Of a stretch of 64,000 nt of DNA, positions 9,949 to 64,000 are shown piece by piece (the stretch's first letter is position 1; the number at the start of each line of letters is the position of its first letter). Made by a program: the position numbers and the translations under genes. The notes under the pieces were generated by a model. It saw nothing but the letters and a program-made list of their open reading frames with translations. It had not been told where the DNA came from and made no database searches. The stretch is taken from positions 267,821-331,820 of the forward strand of contig JABGXB010000003.1 of NCBI GenBank assembly GCA_018675975.1, read 5' to 3'. Origin of the DNA: Candidatus Woesearchaeota archaeon (lineage in GTDB: Archaea > Nanobdellota > Nanobdellia > Woesearchaeales > JABGXB01).

Positions 9949-10148
9949 ATAATTCTCAGACTTATTAACTATTTATAAAGATTTCTTTGATATTATTTTT
10001 TTTCTATTAAATAATATTCATTCATATTAAAAGATTAAACTCCACACATAAAAAGATTTCAATAAAACAAAATAGAATTGAAAAGTTTTCAATTACATTG
10101 AAATGTTTTTTAACAAGTTTATTTTAAACTAAATGTGTATATGAATTT

Positions 10149-11102: not shown

Positions 11103-11149
11103 CCATTAAATTTATAAAAGATTTGCCTACCTTAGTTGTATAAGTCTAA

Positions 11150-11232
11150 GCTGAGGTCGCATAGTCTGGTATTGCGCCGGATTGCTAATCCGGTTCCTTC
11201 GGGAAGCGTGGGTTCAAATCCCGCTCTCAGCG
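11150..11232 (+). tRNA. tRNA-Ser (GCT)
   Basis: An 83 nt cloverleaf: acceptor GCTGAGG/TCTCAGC, anticodon stem CCGGA/TCCGG with loop TTGCTAA, long variable arm TTCCTTCGGGAA, T-arm GTGGG-TTCAAAT-CCCGC, and discriminator G. Confidence 0.9.
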
Positions 11233-11271
11233 TTTTTTATTTATTTTATTATAGTCATCTATACTAAAAAA

Positions 11272-11356
11272 ATCCAAATATATATTATGGATTTGAACTA
11301 AAAGTTCACTTTCAAATGCTCTGCATTTGAAAGGTCGAAAATAAATATTTTCAGAC
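11272..11356 (+). other. Four back-to-back hairpins between tRNA-Ser(GCT) and the duplicate of its 3' end
   Basis: Hairpins read directly from the sequence: 11272-11292 (atcca/tggat), 11294-11308 (tgaac/gttca), 11309-11333 (11 bp perfect stem ctttcaaatgc/gcatttgaaag with a 3 nt loop) and 11334-11356 (gtcgaaaata/tattttcagac). Confidence 0.6.
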
Positions 11357-11374
11357 AATCCCGCTCTCAGCGTT
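11357..11374 (+). repeat. Direct repeat of the tRNA-Ser(GCT) 3' end (T-loop to discriminator plus 2 nt)
   Basis: The 18 bp aatcccgctctcagcgtt is identical at 11217-11234 and 11357-11374. Weaker similarity (ttca..aatc) continues just upstream. Both copies are followed by oligo-T. Confidence 0.75.
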
Positions 11375-11422
11375 CTTTTTTTAATAATAATATTTTATAA
11401 ATTAACAAATCATAAAAATAAT

Positions 11423-11695
11423 ATGAGAACTTCTTTATATAAAAATGCAATTGAATGTTCAAATGCTCTTGATGAAAAATTAAAAGAATTTGAATTAAAA
11501 TTAATAAATCCTAAAGATCATTTTGGAAGAGATTTAACTTCTTTTGAAAAAGGAAAATTAGCATATATAAGTCACCTTCCTAATCAAGAATTAAATATAT
11601 TAAATATGGGTCCTCCAAAAAAATTTTATGAAAGATTCAAATATAATTTAGGACAATTATTTGCATCTTTTGTAGATTCATATAATATAGATTAA
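11423..11695 (+). CDS. Hypothetical protein
   Basis: A 90 aa ORF with a TATA-like word upstream (tttataaatt at about 11394). No recognised family. Confidence 0.4.
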   Translation: MRTSLYKNAIECSNALDEKLKEFELKLINPKDHFGRDLTSFEKGKLAYISHLPNQELNILNMGPPKKFYERFKYNLGQLFASFVDSYNID

Positions 11696-33604: not shown

Positions 33605-36600
33605 ATGGAACAAAGTATTGAAACAAAACGAACTGGTATAAAAGTTAAAAAAGTTTTTTGTAGTGATAATATAAGCCCATTTGAAACTGTTGAATTTGAA
33701 AACAGATCAAGTGTGATAAAAAATAGAGATGGTTCTATATTATTTGAAATAAATAATATTCATGCTCCAAAAAAATGGTCGCAAGTTGCCGTAGATATAA
33801 TGGCACAAAAATATTTTAGAAAAAGTGGAGTTCCACAATATGATGAAAATCAAAATGAAATTAAAGATGAATTTTCAAATATAATTACAGGTTCAGAAAC
33901 AGATATTACTCAACCAATAAAAAGATTAACTGGATGTTGGAGACATTGGGGAGAAAAATATAATTATTTTGATACGCAACAAGATGCAATTAATTTTGAA
34001 CAAGAAATACAATATATGTTATTACATCAAATCGCTGCACCAAATAGTCCACAATGGTTTAATACGGGACTTAAATGGGCATATAATATTTCTGGAAGTG
34101 CACAAGGACATTATTATGCTGAACATGAAACAGGTGAAATTAAATTATCTGAGGATGCATATTCAAGACCTCAACCGCATGCATGTGCGGATTATTATAC
34201 ACAAGTGTATACTGATAAGGGTACAATGTATATTGGAGATATAGTTGAAAATAATTTAACTAATATAAAAGTATTTGATGGAGAAAAATATGTAAAAGTT
34301 CTTGCAATCAAAAACAATGGAAAAAAAGAAGTGTTTAAAATTCAATTAAAAAATGGAAATTATATTAAATTAACTCAAGATCATTTAGTGCTATCATCAC
34401 AAAAAAGAAAAAAAAATGGTGGAAATTATAACTGGAATTATGTAAAAGATGTAAAATTAGGTCACAAATTACAACAACCATTAATTCTAGATATTAAAGA
34501 AAAAAATGTATTTAGTGATGATTTAGCAAAAGCAAGATTAGCCGGTTGGATAGTTGGAGACGGATCAGTTGGAATTTATGAAAATGTAATGAGATTGGAA
34601 ATTATTTCTATTAAAGAAGAAGAATTTGAATCAATAATAAATGATATTCAAGAAGTATTTGGACAAGAAGTTAATTTTTGGATTAGTAAATTTAAAACAA
34701 AAAACGAAAATTTAGATGGTAAAAGAATTCATTTAGCAGGTAAAAAAATACATAAATTAATTGAAGACTATGATTTACTAAAATCTTCATTTAATGCAGA
34801 AGTACCTCAAAAAATAATTAATGGGTCACCACAAGAAAAAAGAGAATTTTTAAAAGCCTTATTTCAAGCAGATGGTTGTGTCAGAATTAGAAAAGATGAA
34901 AATAGAAATTCAGGAGATGTGTGTTTAACTACAATTTCAGAAAATCTTTCATTTGGAGTTTTACAATTATTAAATTCATTAGGTATTTATTGTAGAATTA
35001 ATAAATATAGTGATAAAAGAGAAAATCGAAAAGATGTTAATCAAGTTATAGTATCTTATGGTAGTGCAAGAGAACAATTTCAAGAACAAATTTCTTTTAT
35101 ATGTTCTCAAAAAACCGAAAAATTAGAATTATTAAATAAAATTATAACAAAATCAAAAACACTTCCATTAATAAGAGAAGAAACAATTATTTCAATTGAA
35201 TCTGAAGGCATTAAAGATGTTTATGATATTCAAACAGAATCTTCAAAATTTCTTGGAAATGGAATTGTAATACATAATTGTTTTATTCAATCAGTTAAAG
35301 ATGATTTAGTTAATCAAGGTGGAATATTTGACCTTTGTACAAGAGAGGCAAGAATATTTAAATATGGTTCTGGAACTGGTTCAAATTTTTCACAATTAAG
35401 AGGTCAGTCTGAAAAATTATCAGGTGGTGGAAGATCTTCAGGTATGATGTCATTTTTAAAAATATTTGATGTGGCAGCTGGAGCAATTAAATCAGGTGGT
35501 ACAACAAGACGTGCAGCAAAAATGGTTTGTCTTGATTTGGATCATCCAGAAATTATTGAATTTATTGATTGGAAAGCAAATGAAGAAAAAAAAGTTGCTA
35601 ATTTAATTACTGGTTCAAAAAATTCAAAATATCATTTACAAAAAATATTAAAAGAAGCAAGTTCAAATTCAAATATAGAAAAAAATCCAAAATTAAAATC
35701 AGCAATTAAAGAAGCTATTGAACAAAATATTTCTTTAAATTATATTGATAGAGTTTTAAAACTTGCAAATCAAGGAATAACTGAATTTGAAACTCCCGAG
35801 TTTGATAATCATTTTGAAGGTGAAGCATATTCTACAGTTAGTGGACAAAATTCAAATAATTCAATAAGAATACCAAATTCATTTTATGAAGCTGTTCATA
35901 AAGACTTAGATTGGAATTTAAAAAATAGAACTGATGGAAAAATTTCAAAAACTGTAAGAGCAAAATGGCTTTATGATAAAATTGGACAAGCTGCTTGGGC
36001 TTGTGCAGATCCTGGTGTTCAATTTGATACGACAATTAATGAATGGCATACATGTCCAAAAGATGGAAGAATTAATGCAAGTAATCCTTGTTCTGAATAT
36101 ATGTTTTTAGATGATACTGCATGTAATTTAGCTAGTATTAATTTAATTCATTTTATTAATGATAGTGGACATTTTAATGAAGAAAAATTTGCTCATGCAT
36201 GTGAACTTATGACAATTGTTTTGGAAATTTCAGTTACTATGGCTCAATTTCCAAGTGATGAAATTGCAAAAAGAAGTTGGGAATATAGAACATTAGGTTT
36301 AGGTTTTGCAAATTTAGGGACATTACTCATGGTTAAAGGAATTTCTTATGATAGTGATGAAGCTAGAAGTATAGCTGGAGGAATTAGTGCCATAATGTGT
36401 GGAACTGCTTATGAAACATCTGCTAAACTCGCAAAACATCTAGGACCTTTTAACAGATATGAACATAATAAAGATGACATGTTAAGAGTTATTAGAAATC
36501 ATAGACGTGCTGCATATAATGTTTCAAATGAAGAGTATGAAAAATTAGAAATTACTCCAGTTGGCATTGATGAAAATTTATGTCCAAATAATATTTTACA

Positions 36601-38146
36601 AAAAGCTAGAAATTCATGGGATAATGCACTTGAACTTGGACAAGAATATGGATTTAGAAATGCACAAGTAACTGTTATTGCACCAACCGGAACTATTGGA
36701 CTTTTAATGGATTGTGATACTACAGGAGTTGAGCCAGACTTTGCAATTGTTAAATATAAAAAACTTGCAGGCGGTGGTTATTTTAAAATTGTAAATCATT
36801 CAGTTATTAAAGCATTGAGAACTTTAGGTTATGAAAAAGATCAAATTATTGATATTAAAAAATATTGTATAGGTCATCAAACATTAGTGGGTTGTCCAAC
36901 CATAAATCATAAAATTTTAAAAGATAAAGGATTTGATGAAGAAAAATTAGAACTTATTGAAAAACAATTAGAAACTGCATTTGATTTGAGTTTTGTTATG
37001 AATAAAAATATTTTAAGTGAAGAATTTTTAAAAAAATTAGGATTTAGTGATGAACAATTAAATTCTGAAATGTTTGATTTACTAGAAGAATTAAAATTTA
37101 CAAAAGAACAAGTTGATATTGCAAATGAATATGTTTTTGGAACAATGACAGTTGAAGATGCTCCATACTTATTAGAAGAACATTATTCAGTTTTTGATTG
37201 TGCAAATAAATGTGGAAAAAAAGGTAATAGATATATTGACACTTATGGACATATTAATATGATGGCAGCAGTTCAACCTTTTATTTCTGGTGCAATTAGT
37301 AAAACAATTAATATGGATTCAGAAGTTAGTGTTAAAGATATTTTAGATGCTTATGAAGCTAGTTGGAAATTAATGCTTAAAGCAAATGCATTATATAGAG
37401 ATGGATGTAAATTAAGTCAACCATTAAATACTGCTGTTTTTGAAAGTGAATACAATTTAAATTTATCTGAAGAAGATATTGATGAAACAGTTGATTCAGC
37501 AGCAATTCAACAACAAATTCAAACAATGAAAGCAAATCAGTTGCCGAGAAAAAGAGGTGGTTTTGTTCAAGAAGCAACTGTTGCAGGTCACAAAATATAT
37601 TTAAGAACTGGTGAATATAATGACGGAAAATTAGGTGAAATTTTTATTGACATGTATAAGGAAGGTGCTGCCTTTAAAGCACTAATAAATTGTTTTGCAG
37701 TTGCAATAAGTAAATCTCTACAATTTGGTGTTCCTTTAGAAGAATTTGTTGAACAGTTTACATTTACTAGATTTGAACCGGCAGGTTTAGTAACTGGACA
37801 TGAATATATTAAAAATTCTACGTCAATATTAGATTATGTATTTCGTGTTCTAGGCTATGAATATTTAGGTAGAGATGATTTAATTCATGTAAAACCTAAA
37901 AGAAAACCACTAGACATTATAGAACATGAAGATGATCCAAGAGATAAACATAAAACACTAGATAGTTTTTCTAATAGAAAAAATGTAGAAGAGACTAGAA
38001 ACGAAATGCTTTTTAAAAAAATTAATACTGCCAAATCAAGAGGATATACTGGAGAAGCATGTGGTTCTTGTGGTAGTATGAGAGTAAAAAGAAATGGAAG
38101 TTGTACACTTTGTGAAGATTGTGGTTCTACTAGTGGTTGCAGTTAG
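33605..38146 (+). CDS. nrdJ: Class II (adenosylcobalamin-dependent) ribonucleotide reductase, interrupted in frame by one intein
   Basis: Blocks [24 protein letters not shown] active-site region, [27 protein letters not shown], and a C-terminal Cys-rich tail CGSCGS...CTLCEDCG. The protein is 1513 aa including the 365 aa intein. Confidence 0.9.
34184..35278 (+). mobile_element. Intein with LAGLIDADG homing-endonuclease domain inside nrdJ
   Basis: It begins with Cys (PQPHA|CADYY) and ends with HN followed by Cys (GIVIHN|CFIQSV). The two LAGLIDADG blocks are [11 protein letters not shown] (34538-34570) and [11 protein letters not shown] (34850-34882). Removing the insert restores the conserved HACFIQSV extein sequence. 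Confidence 0.85.
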
Positions 38147-55006: not shown

Positions 55007-55064
55007 TTTAAAAAAATAAAAATAATCAAAACACTTAAAAACCACATAATTTTTTGTCAATTAA

Positions 55065-55137
55065 AGTCCCGTAGTGTAGTGGCCTATCATCGTGCCCTTT
55101 GGAGGCGCGGACCCCGGTTCAAATCCGGGCGGGACTA
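55065..55137 (+). tRNA. tRNA-Gln (TTG)
   Basis: A 73 nt cloverleaf: acceptor AGTCCCG/CGGGACT with A1:U72, anticodon stem GTGCC/GGCGC with loop CTTTGGA, T-arm CCCGG-TTCAAAT-CCGGG, and discriminator A. Confidence 0.9.
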
Positions 55138-63026: not shown

Positions 63027-63048
63027 CTTAATTATATTCTAATATATT

Positions 63049-63057
63049 TGTTTATAA
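63049..63057 (-). promoter_or_regulatory. Candidate TATA box (cttataaac on the minus strand) for tRNA-Val
   Basis: It lies about 25 nt upstream of tRNA-Val position 1 and downstream of the oligo-T that follows tRNA-Ser(TGA). Confidence 0.45.
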
Positions 63058-63077: not shown

Positions 63078-63160
63078 ACGCCGAGACTGAGATTCGAACT
63101 CAGAATCCCTTACGGGACAAGCTTTCAAGGCTTGCGCAATACCAGATTATGCGATCTCGG
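63078..63160 (-). tRNA. tRNA-Ser (TGA)
   Basis: The reverse complement gives an 83 nt cloverleaf: acceptor GCCGAGA/TCTCGGC, anticodon stem CAAGC/GCTTG with loop CTTGAAA, long variable arm TCCCGTAAGGGAT, T-arm CTGAG-TTCGAAT-CTCAG, and discriminator G. Confidence 0.9.
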
Positions 63161-63201
63161 CAACGTTTTTGACGAATCGCGACCATTAATGAAATTAATG
63201 A

Positions 63202-63216
63202 CATGCGATCTCGGCA
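63202..63216 (-). repeat. Direct repeat of the tRNA-Ser(TGA) 5' end (2 nt of leader plus positions 1-13)
   Basis: The 15 bp atgcgatctcggcaa is identical at 63148-63162 and 63202-63216 (plus-strand coordinates). The spacer contains the palindrome cattaatgaaattaatg at 63183-63199. Confidence 0.65.
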
Positions 63217-63255
63217 ATCTTAAATACATTCTCAAAAATTATTGTTTTTATAAAA

Positions 63256-64000
63256 TTAATGACTTTTTGCAATATAAACCACATGTTTTGCAGGTTTACC
63301 ACAAACAATACAATTACAAAATACTTCCTCATTTTTATTAAACCAAACACCTCTTACTTCAGCTTTTGTTTCTTTTTCAATTACTCCAGCACATTCCGCA
63401 CCATCCATATCAATTGAACAAAATGAAGTTCTTATCATTTTACCATCATCAATATTTTTTTTAATATCATTTTTATTTTGAACATCTATTACAGTTTTAT
63501 CAAATACTTCATCTGCTTGAGAAATCATATTTTGAGTAAAAGTTTCTTTAATTGAATTAATATGAGGAATTAAATCATTCATTGAAACAGTATTTTTTTC
63601 AGATATGTCTCTTCTAAAAATAATAATTTGATTATTTTCAACATCACGCGGACCAACTTCAATTCTTATAGGAACACCTTTTAATTCCCAATGATTATAT
63701 TTGTAACCCGGGCTAAATTCTTTTCTATCATCAATTTTAACAGAATAATTTAATTTTTCTAATTGATTTTTTATTAACTCCACTCTAGAATCTACAATAT
63801 CAAATTTATTTTTAAAATAAATTGGAATAATTATTATTTGTAATGGAGCTATATCCCAAGGTAATTTTAAACCAGTATCATCACCATGAAATGTTATTAA
63901 AGCACCATAATTTCTAGAATGACATGGACCATAACAAGTAATCCAACCTAATTTTTCACTTTCATCCTTATCTTTAAATTTAACATTAAATGCCTCACTA
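63256..64000 (-). CDS. proS: Prolyl-tRNA synthetase, archaeal/eukaryotic type (3' part; 5' end lies beyond the window)
   Basis: The reading frame stays open from 63999 down to the stop at 63256. It encodes FHGDDTGLKLPWDIAPLQIIIIPI (class II motif-3 / anticodon-domain junction) and a C-terminal Zn-type tail CNCIVCGKPAKH. The track's Met at 63783 is an internal GTG. Confidence 0.85.
   Translation of the reverse strand, partial: SEAFNVKFKDKDESEKLGWITCYGPCHSRNYGALITFHGDDTGLKLPWDIAPLQIIIIPIYFKNKFDIVDSRVELIKNQLEKLNYSVKIDDRKEFSPGYKYNHWELKGVPIRIEVGPRDVENNQIIIFRRDISEKNTVSMNDLIPHINSIKETFTQNMISQADEVFDKTVIDVQNKNDIKKNIDDGKMIRTSFCSIDMDGAECAGVIEKETKAEVRGVWFNKNEEVFCNCIVCGKPAKHVVYIAKSH

Follow-up and report, generated by a model that had tools for sequence, protein, structure and literature searches.

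Introduction

Partial copies of tRNA genes are usually dismissed as the scars of integration. The attachment (att) cores reported for archaeal integrases span ~40–50 nt, and casposons, which target the 3′ ends of tRNA genes, produce long duplications and tandem insertions with a common repeat. Fragments of tRNA genes left by integrated elements have been described in archaea (PMC9897764), and a model ties the integration of mobile elements to the gain of tRNA introns and the scattering of tRNA fragments (PMC3293823); archaea of the DPANN type are further known for splicing endonucleases of broad specificity (PMC3239211, PMC5829648). Here we report on a 64,000-nt stretch of the genome of Candidatus Woesearchaeota archaeon (contig JABGXB010000003.1, positions 267,821–331,820; hereafter the window), in which a first-pass annotation made from the sequence alone had drawn attention to a tRNA-Ser(GCT) gene with a repeated 3′ end and a block of hairpins between the two copies. 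The insert belongs to a family of modules at tRNA-Ser genes in which a distal copy of the tRNA's own 3′ end, one or more hairpins and a segment antisense to the start of the copy occur together, and all three are present in the window. Such modules are not described in the literature that we found by full-text search, although an absence of this kind is no proof of novelty.

With the att duplications of archaeal integrases (SSV-type and pNOB8-type) the locus shares a direct repeat of a tRNA 3′ portion that begins within the T-arm and leaves the tRNA intact on one side, and a related locus in another archaeon (L125; loci other than the window carry L numbers throughout) also has repeat arrays and a displaced older tRNA fragment. 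It differs from them in that the insert measures just 122 bp, no integrase lies nearby, what was inserted is a structured module that is conserved, as opposed to a gene island in decay, and the repeat has 18 nt, against the longer att cores reported. Miniature inverted-repeat transposable elements (MITEs), cis-mobilizable att-flanked elements with no integrase of their own and palindrome-associated IS200/IS605 derivatives resemble the modules in being small, hairpin-rich and non-coding and in occurring variably in several genomes, and one module copy lies away from any tRNA gene. Unlike these elements, however, the modules have no flush terminal inverted repeats, carry a repeat of 9–24 nt instead of a fixed target-site duplication, sit in all but one case at tRNA-Ser and have an apparently very low copy number per genome. 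The attC cassettes of bacterial integrons offer an analogy only: inverted segments (GGATTTGAAC ... GTTCAAATCC) surround a variable structured region, arrays form at one fixed site and, in L125, a unit bearing an open reading frame (ORF) stands beside ORF-less ones, but the host is an archaeon, we found no recombinase resembling IntI and the boxes do not fit the attC consensus.

Two further comparisons concern RNA processing. Archaeal T-loop introns of the bulge-helix-bulge type lie in the same part of tRNA-Ser (59/60, against 57/58 for the insert), resemble the insert in having two hairpins inside and are found in the same group of organisms, whereas the window insert cannot form a bulge-helix-bulge and has a complete tRNA upstream. 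The 3′ halves of the split tRNAs of Nanoarchaeum equitans and Caldivirga maquilingensis are likewise separate stretches headed by a leader complementary to tRNA sequence; here, in contrast, the sequence directly upstream is a complete tRNA with an identical 3′ end, the leader complements the T-arm and not the trailer of a 5′ half, and no orphan 5′ half was found in the 64-kb window. Casposons differ from the modules in their Cas1 and clear terminal inverted repeats, neither of which is present here, in a repeat of 14–15 bp where that of the modules is variable, and in a size of several kb as opposed to ~100 bp.

Results

The tRNA-Ser(GCT) gene occupies positions 11150–11232 on the plus strand, as do all parts of the locus given below. 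It is intact and intron-less, does not encode CCA, and was recognized by both ARAGORN and Rfam (RF00005, 55.6 bits). Positions 58–73 of the tRNA together with two trailer nucleotides form the proximal repeat copy (11217–11234), and the distal copy of this 3′ end (11357–11374) lies 140 bp away, leaving an insert of 122 bp between the two. As first annotated, the 18-mer (AATCCCGCTCTCAGCGTT) is repeated exactly (18/18) and each copy is followed by oligo-T, a T6 run at 11233–11238 and a T7 run at 11376–11382. It occurs at exactly these two sites in the window, where no third copy was found even at 3 mismatches, and the chance expectation is 0 (100 shuffles gave 0 matches even at ≤3 mismatches). 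The repeat continues imperfectly to 27 nt, with 25/27 positions identical and the T-runs included, and the similarity ends there. Because it reaches past the mature tRNA into the trailer, the repeat would have been made at the level of DNA or of the primary transcript and not from mature tRNA, and its extent points to a DNA-level duplication. The insert contains no ORF with a family match, and in place of flush terminal inverted repeats we found only an inverted match of 10 nt, made up of A and T alone, that is set back from the insert ends by 3 and 9 nt.

An AT-rich spacer (11235–11288) opens the insert and is followed by GGATTTGAAC (11289–11298), which both the sequence and the folds identify as antisense to the T-arm word GTTCAAATCC; the inverted T-loop word reported earlier is indeed the exact complement of 11212–11221. 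Next come GTTCA (11304–11308), which reproduces the final base of the T-stem together with positions 54–57 of the T-loop, and hairpin A (11309–11333), whose 11-bp perfect stem and 3-nt loop (CTTTCAAATGC TCT GCATTTGAAAG) agree with the hairpin first described. Hairpin B (11334–11356), with the sequence GTC-GAAAATA-AA-TATTTTC-A-GAC, was delimited by fold and alignment and abuts the distal repeat. GTTCA and the first bases of that repeat (11357–11361) together restore GTTCA/AATCC around the two-hairpin insert. Two parts of GGATTTGAAC are paired: GGATT with AATCC at the start of the distal repeat, as a closing stem, and TGAAC with the GTTCA of 11304–11308.

The insert folds far better than expected from its composition. 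RNAfold placed 11268–11374 (107 nt) in four adjacent hairpins at −29.8 kcal/mol, compared with −12.3 ± 3.0 kcal/mol for shuffled sequences (z = −5.85), and 0/200 shuffles folded as well, which disposes of the earlier concern that the hairpins might be no more stable than shuffled AT-rich controls. When all 107-nt segments of both strands of the 64 kb were folded, the only more stable ones were tRNA genes, and the hairpin block was approximately matched in stability by one stretch of coding sequence near 23.7 kb. Perfect hairpins with stems of at least 9 bp are present in the window as 18 stem-loop combinations at 16 sites, against ~13 in shuffles, and those made of A and T alone are no commoner than in shuffles; hairpin A has the highest G+C count (4/11) of the 16 perfect sites. 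The count of four hairpins in the first-pass annotation is thus what RNAfold yields, but the first of them (AAATCCA...TGGATTT), whose 5′ arm lies in the spacer, is not conserved in relatives, where GGATTT is paired differently. The conserved alternative joins GGATT (11289–11293) with AATCC (11357–11361) and gives a closing stem with three hairpins. The 12-mer TTCAAATGCTCT (left arm and loop of hairpin A, 11311–11322) recurs at 11458–11469 inside a downstream 90-aa orphan ORF, which may be chance.

We found modules of the same plan at other tRNA-Ser genes. The window, L125 and L179, of which the latter two are tRNA-Ser(GGA) genes, have in common the order GGATTTGAAC(C), a loop of 3–5 nt, (G)GTTCA, hairpin A, hairpin B and (C)AAATCC with the remaining tRNA 3′ end. 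The two hairpins sit exactly between GTTCA and AATCC, with both of which the upstream antisense can pair, and on sequence comparison the window insert is homologous to those of L125 and L179. An RNAalifold consensus of the three consists of the closing stem (GGAUUU with AAAUCC) and three hairpins, in which 6/25 pairs are changed on both sides. The GGATTTGAAC motif is shared by L125, L179, L108, L205, L151 and L190, and hairpin B is homologous to its counterparts in L125, L179, L129, L141 and L153, with compensatory changes present. The automatic alignment of the full set of ten modules was not good enough to assess covariation, and subfamilies were analyzed separately. The consensus fold of L129/L141/L153 has 22 pairs, 5 of them compensatory and 0 broken; that of L108, L205 and the distal copy of L125 has two-sided changes in 4/21 pairs, and the closing stem of the old degenerate copy in this subfamily shows one G-C to A-U change; and in L212/L215/L223, which represent a minimal one-hairpin form, 2/13 pairs are changed on both sides. 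Compensatory stem changes across homologs, proposed early on as a check of the hairpin block, therefore appear in four consensus folds.

A covariance model (R1) built from the window, L125 and L179 scored L129, L108, L190, L141, L205 and L151 with E values of 0.001–0.02; it gave 83.4 bits for 11289–11372 of the window, which is, however, one of its three building sequences. The mean fold z of the modules relative to shuffles is −2.7. In L109 the repeat begins after a T-loop intron, and the antisense there matches the T-stem and acceptor portion instead (10 bp). The covariance model also picked out an element with hairpins A and B at 474–554 of L108, ~7 kb from the tRNA-Ser of that locus and between convergent genes. 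It has another closing stem (GTCGAAG ... CTCTCGAC) followed by a T-run, and ARAGORN finds no tRNA in the region.

A metagenome scan with the D-arm common to both tRNA-Ser genes of the window (TCGCATARTCTGGTATTGCGC) yielded 120 loci; the samples were of groundwater, sediment, lake and marine origin, and the genes had the anticodons GCT, TGA, GGA and CGA. Exact copies of a gene's own ends within 300 nt were then counted over distinct loci other than those of the window's species. The last 9 nt of the tRNA were copied downstream at 12/92 loci, where ~0.1 was expected, and the first 11 nt were copied upstream at 8/94 loci, where ~0.007 was expected; several further loci were added when one mismatch was permitted. 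Copies of own ends were seen at 0 of ~43 non-Ser tRNAs in the fetched loci, a control set drawn largely from other lineages. An additional case was met by accident in L223. The repeat always matches the acceptor stem of the local tRNA, it mostly begins on the left inside the T-loop, between positions 56 and 60 (by reading of the listed repeats), and its length across loci is 9–24 nt; in L205 it extends 8 nt beyond the discriminator. Repeats can be multiple, with three 3′ copies each in L125 and L179 and four 5′ copies in L140 at a period of ~57 nt. Because similar inserts recur in this way at the tRNA-Ser genes of many related archaea, the insert is, to judge by these comparisons, more than the worn remnant of one old insertion.

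Introns are frequent among the same genes. T-loop introns at 59/60 are present in the tRNA-Ser of L133, L118, L109 and L166, in whose folds the T-stem is the outer helix and UUCA:UGAA a 4-bp helix between two 3-nt bulges; L206, L210 and L218 look alike by eye. Introns in the anticodon loop and anticodon stem also occur in many of these tRNA-Ser genes, which ARAGORN misses.

Modules are gained, lost and replaced among close relatives. L125, L205, L108 and L198 have a common upstream gene (75–80% nucleotide identity), and of these L198 is free of modules, a single type is present in L108 and L205, and L125 carries an array. In L125 the tRNA is followed by a module of the window type with its copy, a shorter second module with its copy, a 329-aa orphan ORF, a longer tRNA fragment that reaches to the variable arm, a module of the L205 type and finally a degenerate copy. 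By eye, the variable arm of the displaced fragment is closer to the L144 allele than to L125's own tRNA. The oriented region from +1 to +1700 of the tRNA holds five copies of the tRNA-Ser 3′ end and three different modules. This region has the appearance of a small array of cassettes or a hotspot of integration, and the order of its parts is the picture that would be expected of successive insertions into the tRNA gene, with older 3′ ends pushed downstream. The 329-aa ORF has no family match and two homologs among 5.8 billion proteins; neither homolog lies inside repeats, and one is ~0.7 kb from another module-bearing tRNA-Ser. Between L125 and L179 similarity is confined to the tRNA and the module (76% over 203 nt), the flanks being dissimilar. 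L129, L141 and L153, on the other hand, are syntenic and all retain a module with intact stems at 67–74% identity of their coding regions.

Within the window's species, 17 independent contigs from different oceans are 99.94–100% identical to the window, and the 12 of them that span 11103–11422 are 100% identical across that segment. Comparison within the species is therefore uninformative on the module, and the archaeon appears to be a globally clonal marine member of DPANN. Its public copies are labeled 'Candidatus Woesearchaeota archaeon', were obtained from marine samples, among them those of Saanich Inlet and Hawaii, and include one contig of 1.03 Mb (JGI 3300072015). The closest SufC in a collection of 5.8 billion proteins is 65% identical, identities falling straight from 100% to this value, and the contigs of the SufC homologs show no synteny with the window. 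Among the GTDB species representatives scanned, the closest GatE is 47% identical, which suggests that the species is not represented there, and the best match has no tRNA-Ser synteny. These searches with SufC and GatE thus gave neither a close relative nor a syntenic tRNA-Ser locus for the window's species.

Discussion

We consider it about evenly probable, whether true or false, that the locus arose by site-specific insertion at the DNA level and that the module is a small non-autonomous element or cassette, mobile now or formerly. The insertion would have entered the segment from the T-loop to the 3′ end of tRNA-Ser(GCT), so that the intact tRNA kept the proximal copy and a second copy (positions 58–73 and two trailer nucleotides) was left 140 bp downstream. 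The insert would then be one compact representative of a family of structured modules that recurs at DPANN tRNA-Ser genes, laid out as a T-arm antisense, a short sense piece of the T-arm, one to three hairpins and the repeat; the start of the distal repeat would be paired to the antisense as the closing stem, with the 3′ strand of the acceptor remaining as a tail. A recombinase supplied in trans could place the module, the repeat being the duplicated target or att-like core, and the hairpins might act as DNA or as RNA. In its clonal genome the module would now be fixed as a single copy. A small non-autonomous structured element was one of the options named by the first-pass annotation, and it is the one best supported by the recurrence, the presence or absence and type replacement among relatives, the arrays and the one copy away from a tRNA gene.

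Several results weigh against mobility. We detected no recombinase, integrase or transposase, either next to any of the modules or within those parts of the window that are annotated; the flanking ORFs of the window have no Pfam or PHROG match, and the ORFs beside modules at other loci include no integrase. Further copies of the hairpin block, which had been proposed as a search target, exist as homologous modules at the tRNA-Ser genes of other lineages, but no second copy of any hairpin or module was found in the 64-kb window. The empty tRNA-Ser site that had been suggested as a comparison did not turn up for the window's species: its junction gave 0 matches in JGI metagenomes. A module-free orthologous site does exist in another lineage (L198). 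With no empty site and 17 near-identical contigs, mobility is therefore inferred from other lineages only. The non-Ser control tRNAs come largely from other lineages. A shuffle test of antisense-to-repeat pairing over 21 modules was borderline (combined p 0.056), and the retention of the module in L129, L141 and L153 agrees equally well with selection at the level of the host and with mobility.

That retention, with intact stems despite the divergence of the coding regions, is among the observations that would favor a structured RNA with a function in the host, an explanation that we regard as possible but on the unlikely side. The module would be a trailer or small RNA with a stem-closed three-hairpin, cloverleaf-like body that mimics the tRNA 3′ end, and its single-stranded 3′ tail, being a copy of the 3′ strand of the acceptor, could base-pair to the 5′ strand of the tRNA-Ser acceptor or to the leader copies present at other tRNA-Ser genes, with possible roles in processing, quality control or regulation. 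The strong predicted fold of the insert, the negative mean z of the modules and the compensatory stem changes are what such an RNA would show. By eye, L151, L168, L177 and L172 have preserved the acceptor-strand part of the repeat better than its T-stem part. The non-Watson-Crick pairs on the plus strand, as counted in the consensus tables of three rows, are G-U in ~9 cases and A-C in ~3, and the minimum-free-energy fold of L131 joins the leader copy to the distal 3′ copy. In many lineages there is no T-run between tRNA and module, which makes co-transcription likely there. In the window, however, the T6 run stands directly behind the tRNA, so the module here would mostly not be co-transcribed, and no consensus TATA box is seen before it; the noncoding RNA co-transcribed with the tRNA and ending in a tRNA-like 3′ end, as first suggested, is plausible in its structure. 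Moreover, the module is dispensable, being absent from L198, L144 and most tRNA-Ser genes, close relatives swap module types, L190 has a module without an acceptor copy, and there is no Rfam match. A mobile cassette and a host RNA are not mutually exclusive.

The other explanations fare worse. An inert scar, in which a virus or plasmid bearing an integrase entered the tRNA-Ser 3′ end (attL/attR) and was later deleted to 122 bp, with the hairpins as leftover arms, is in our view improbable. The geometry of the repeat fits an att-type duplication, as the first-pass annotation had proposed, integrated DNA with flanking repeats of tRNA ends is well known in archaea (PMC9897764, PMC3293823), the 1.2-kb ORF-bearing segment and displaced fragment of L125 attest larger insertions at tRNA-Ser, and orphan genes flank the tRNA-Ser of the window. 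A scar leaves unexplained, however, the recurrence at tRNA-Ser of other lineages with compensatory changes, as independent decay would not repeat one architecture; a G+C-rich 13-nt copy and perfect stems should erode at 23% G+C, yet the repeat is 18/18 identical. In IMG/VR the 16-nt core of the repeat gave two matches, both in G+C-rich contexts and attributable to chance, and the pattern of hairpin A had 0 matches among viral contigs. More improbable still is an intron or split gene, with the distal copy as a real or alternative 3′ exon, a trans-splicing 3′ half or part of a nascent or decaying T-loop intron. It draws on the textbook bulge-helix-bulge introns of relatives at 59/60, which adjoin the repeat boundary at 57/58, on an extra unit in L109 that resembles a tandem copy of intron hairpin and 3′ exon, and on one L133 intron hairpin that resembles hairpin B. 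But none of the 24 splice pairs 140 nt apart forms a bulge-helix-bulge; at 59/60 the 4-bp helix would set TTCA against AGAC, with 2/4 pairs and no inner helix, whereas the L133 control scores 4/5/5; tRNA-Ser(GCT) is complete without splicing; and the window has no 5′-half gene lacking a 3′ end, the sole 5′ partner being the complete tRNA. Chance or tandem slippage, finally, has a negligible probability. AT-rich genomes are rich in short repeats and AT-only hairpins, as the slight excess of hairpin combinations over shuffles illustrates, but the expectation for the 18-mer is 0, nothing similar extends beyond the 27-nt repeat and the pattern recurs across lineages, by which this explanation is already effectively refuted.

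Candidates of other kinds were tried and rejected. A phage or plasmid origin was sought by BLAST of 11200–11390, which gave only weak AT-rich noise. A MITE or transposon with a target-site duplication does not agree with the lack of flush terminal inverted repeats, the 9–24-nt range of repeat length and the single copy in the window. Among known RNA families, Rfam 15 passes the tRNA only, and at permissive thresholds too the best hit over the block was SNORA68 (E 3.9). For a C/D box small RNA, no UGAUGA was seen on either strand of 11268–11374, and CUGA occurs by eye on the minus strand only, with no C box. The defining features of H/ACA RNAs, primer-binding sites, TnpB guide RNAs, IS110 bridge RNAs and casposons were not seen, as judged from the sequence.

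The modules may represent an undescribed class of tiny cassettes in DPANN archaea, specific to tRNA-Ser (D-loop side at the 5′ end, T-loop side at the 3′ end), which would duplicate the end of the gene and fold an antisense onto it and which could be the source of the 59/60 introns or have been co-opted as leader or trailer RNAs that imitate the ends of the tRNA. In function such cassettes would recall the attC cassettes of integrons or transposon ends that carry guides. We hold this broader proposal to be doubtful. What sets the copy described here apart from the scars for which such copies are usually taken is that it comes with a conserved, compensating structure, and copies of this kind were present at ~1 in 8 of the tRNA-Ser genes sampled from DPANN-type archaea, at both gene ends and sometimes in arrays. 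If mobile, the modules would be a new and extremely small site-specific element in genomes thought poor in mobile DNA; if functional RNAs, they would be a new kind of tRNA-end mimic tied to one tRNA isotype. The repeat boundary at 57/58 is two bases from the 59/60 introns of relatives, which makes the long-debated and modeled link between mobile DNA and the disruption of tRNA genes (PMC3293823) testable. In practice, tRNA predictors and island finders will misread such loci.

Additional Features of the Window

A sister feature lies at the other tRNA-Ser gene of the window. tRNA-Ser(TGA) (63078–63162, minus strand) has a repeated 5′ end (63149–63217, minus strand), in which the 15-nt TTGCCGAGATCGCAT, made up of 2 leader nucleotides and tRNA positions 1–13, stands at 63149–63163 and again at 63203–63217, the copies being 54 nt apart. 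The 39-nt insert between them has a hairpin and the G+C-rich GGTCGCGATTCG, which is antisense to the repeated 5′ end. A consensus TATA box precedes the upstream orphan copy by 30 nt, the same spacing as at tRNA-Ser(GCT), and the 5′ architecture is also found in L109, L113, L131, L140 and L162. Behind the variable hairpin is a motif, GGTCGCGA, that recurs in the leaders of these five loci. The insert begins with GTCATTAATTTCATTAA, 15/17 identical to the region of the prolyl-tRNA synthetase stop codon and TATA box 61 nt farther upstream (63149–63263, minus strand). In the same genome, the tRNA genes for Met, Gln, Val and Gly lack copies of their own ends.

The putative TATA box of tRNA-Ser(GCT) (TTTATAAAA, 11112–11120, plus strand) was read from the sequence 30 nt before position 1, and the same motif precedes the other tRNA genes. 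Measured from the end of the box (TTTATAAA-like) to position 1, the distance is 30 nt at both tRNA-Ser genes and 22–23 nt at the Met, Gln, Val and Gly tRNA genes (window 9950–9975, 11112–11150, 55030–55065 and 63028–63050; L098 1500–1535). The shorter spacing suggests leaderless transcription of these tRNAs, as in Nanoarchaeum.

The window has a G+C content of ~23% and is coding-dense. Its genes include GatD/GatE, a Suf cluster, an intein-bearing class II ribonucleotide reductase, FtsZ, Cdc48 and further housekeeping genes, and this content marks it as archaeal. Near tRNA-Ser(GCT), the upstream 317-aa ORF is an orphan, and searches of Pfam, PHROG and PDB gave no match for the ORFs of 90 and 712 aa. 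At 500–540 of L094 (IMG/VR UViG 2519899664_000001), a viral contig of moderate G+C, all 18 repeat nucleotides are contained in GCGGGTTGCGGCTAAAATCCCGCTCTCAGCGTT, which looks like a T-arm with an enlarged loop and was treated as chance or as an unrelated tRNA fragment. A related genome (L225) encodes the RNase P protein subunit Rpp14. The intein of the class II ribonucleotide reductase (window 33605–38146) carries a LAGLIDADG homing endonuclease domain.

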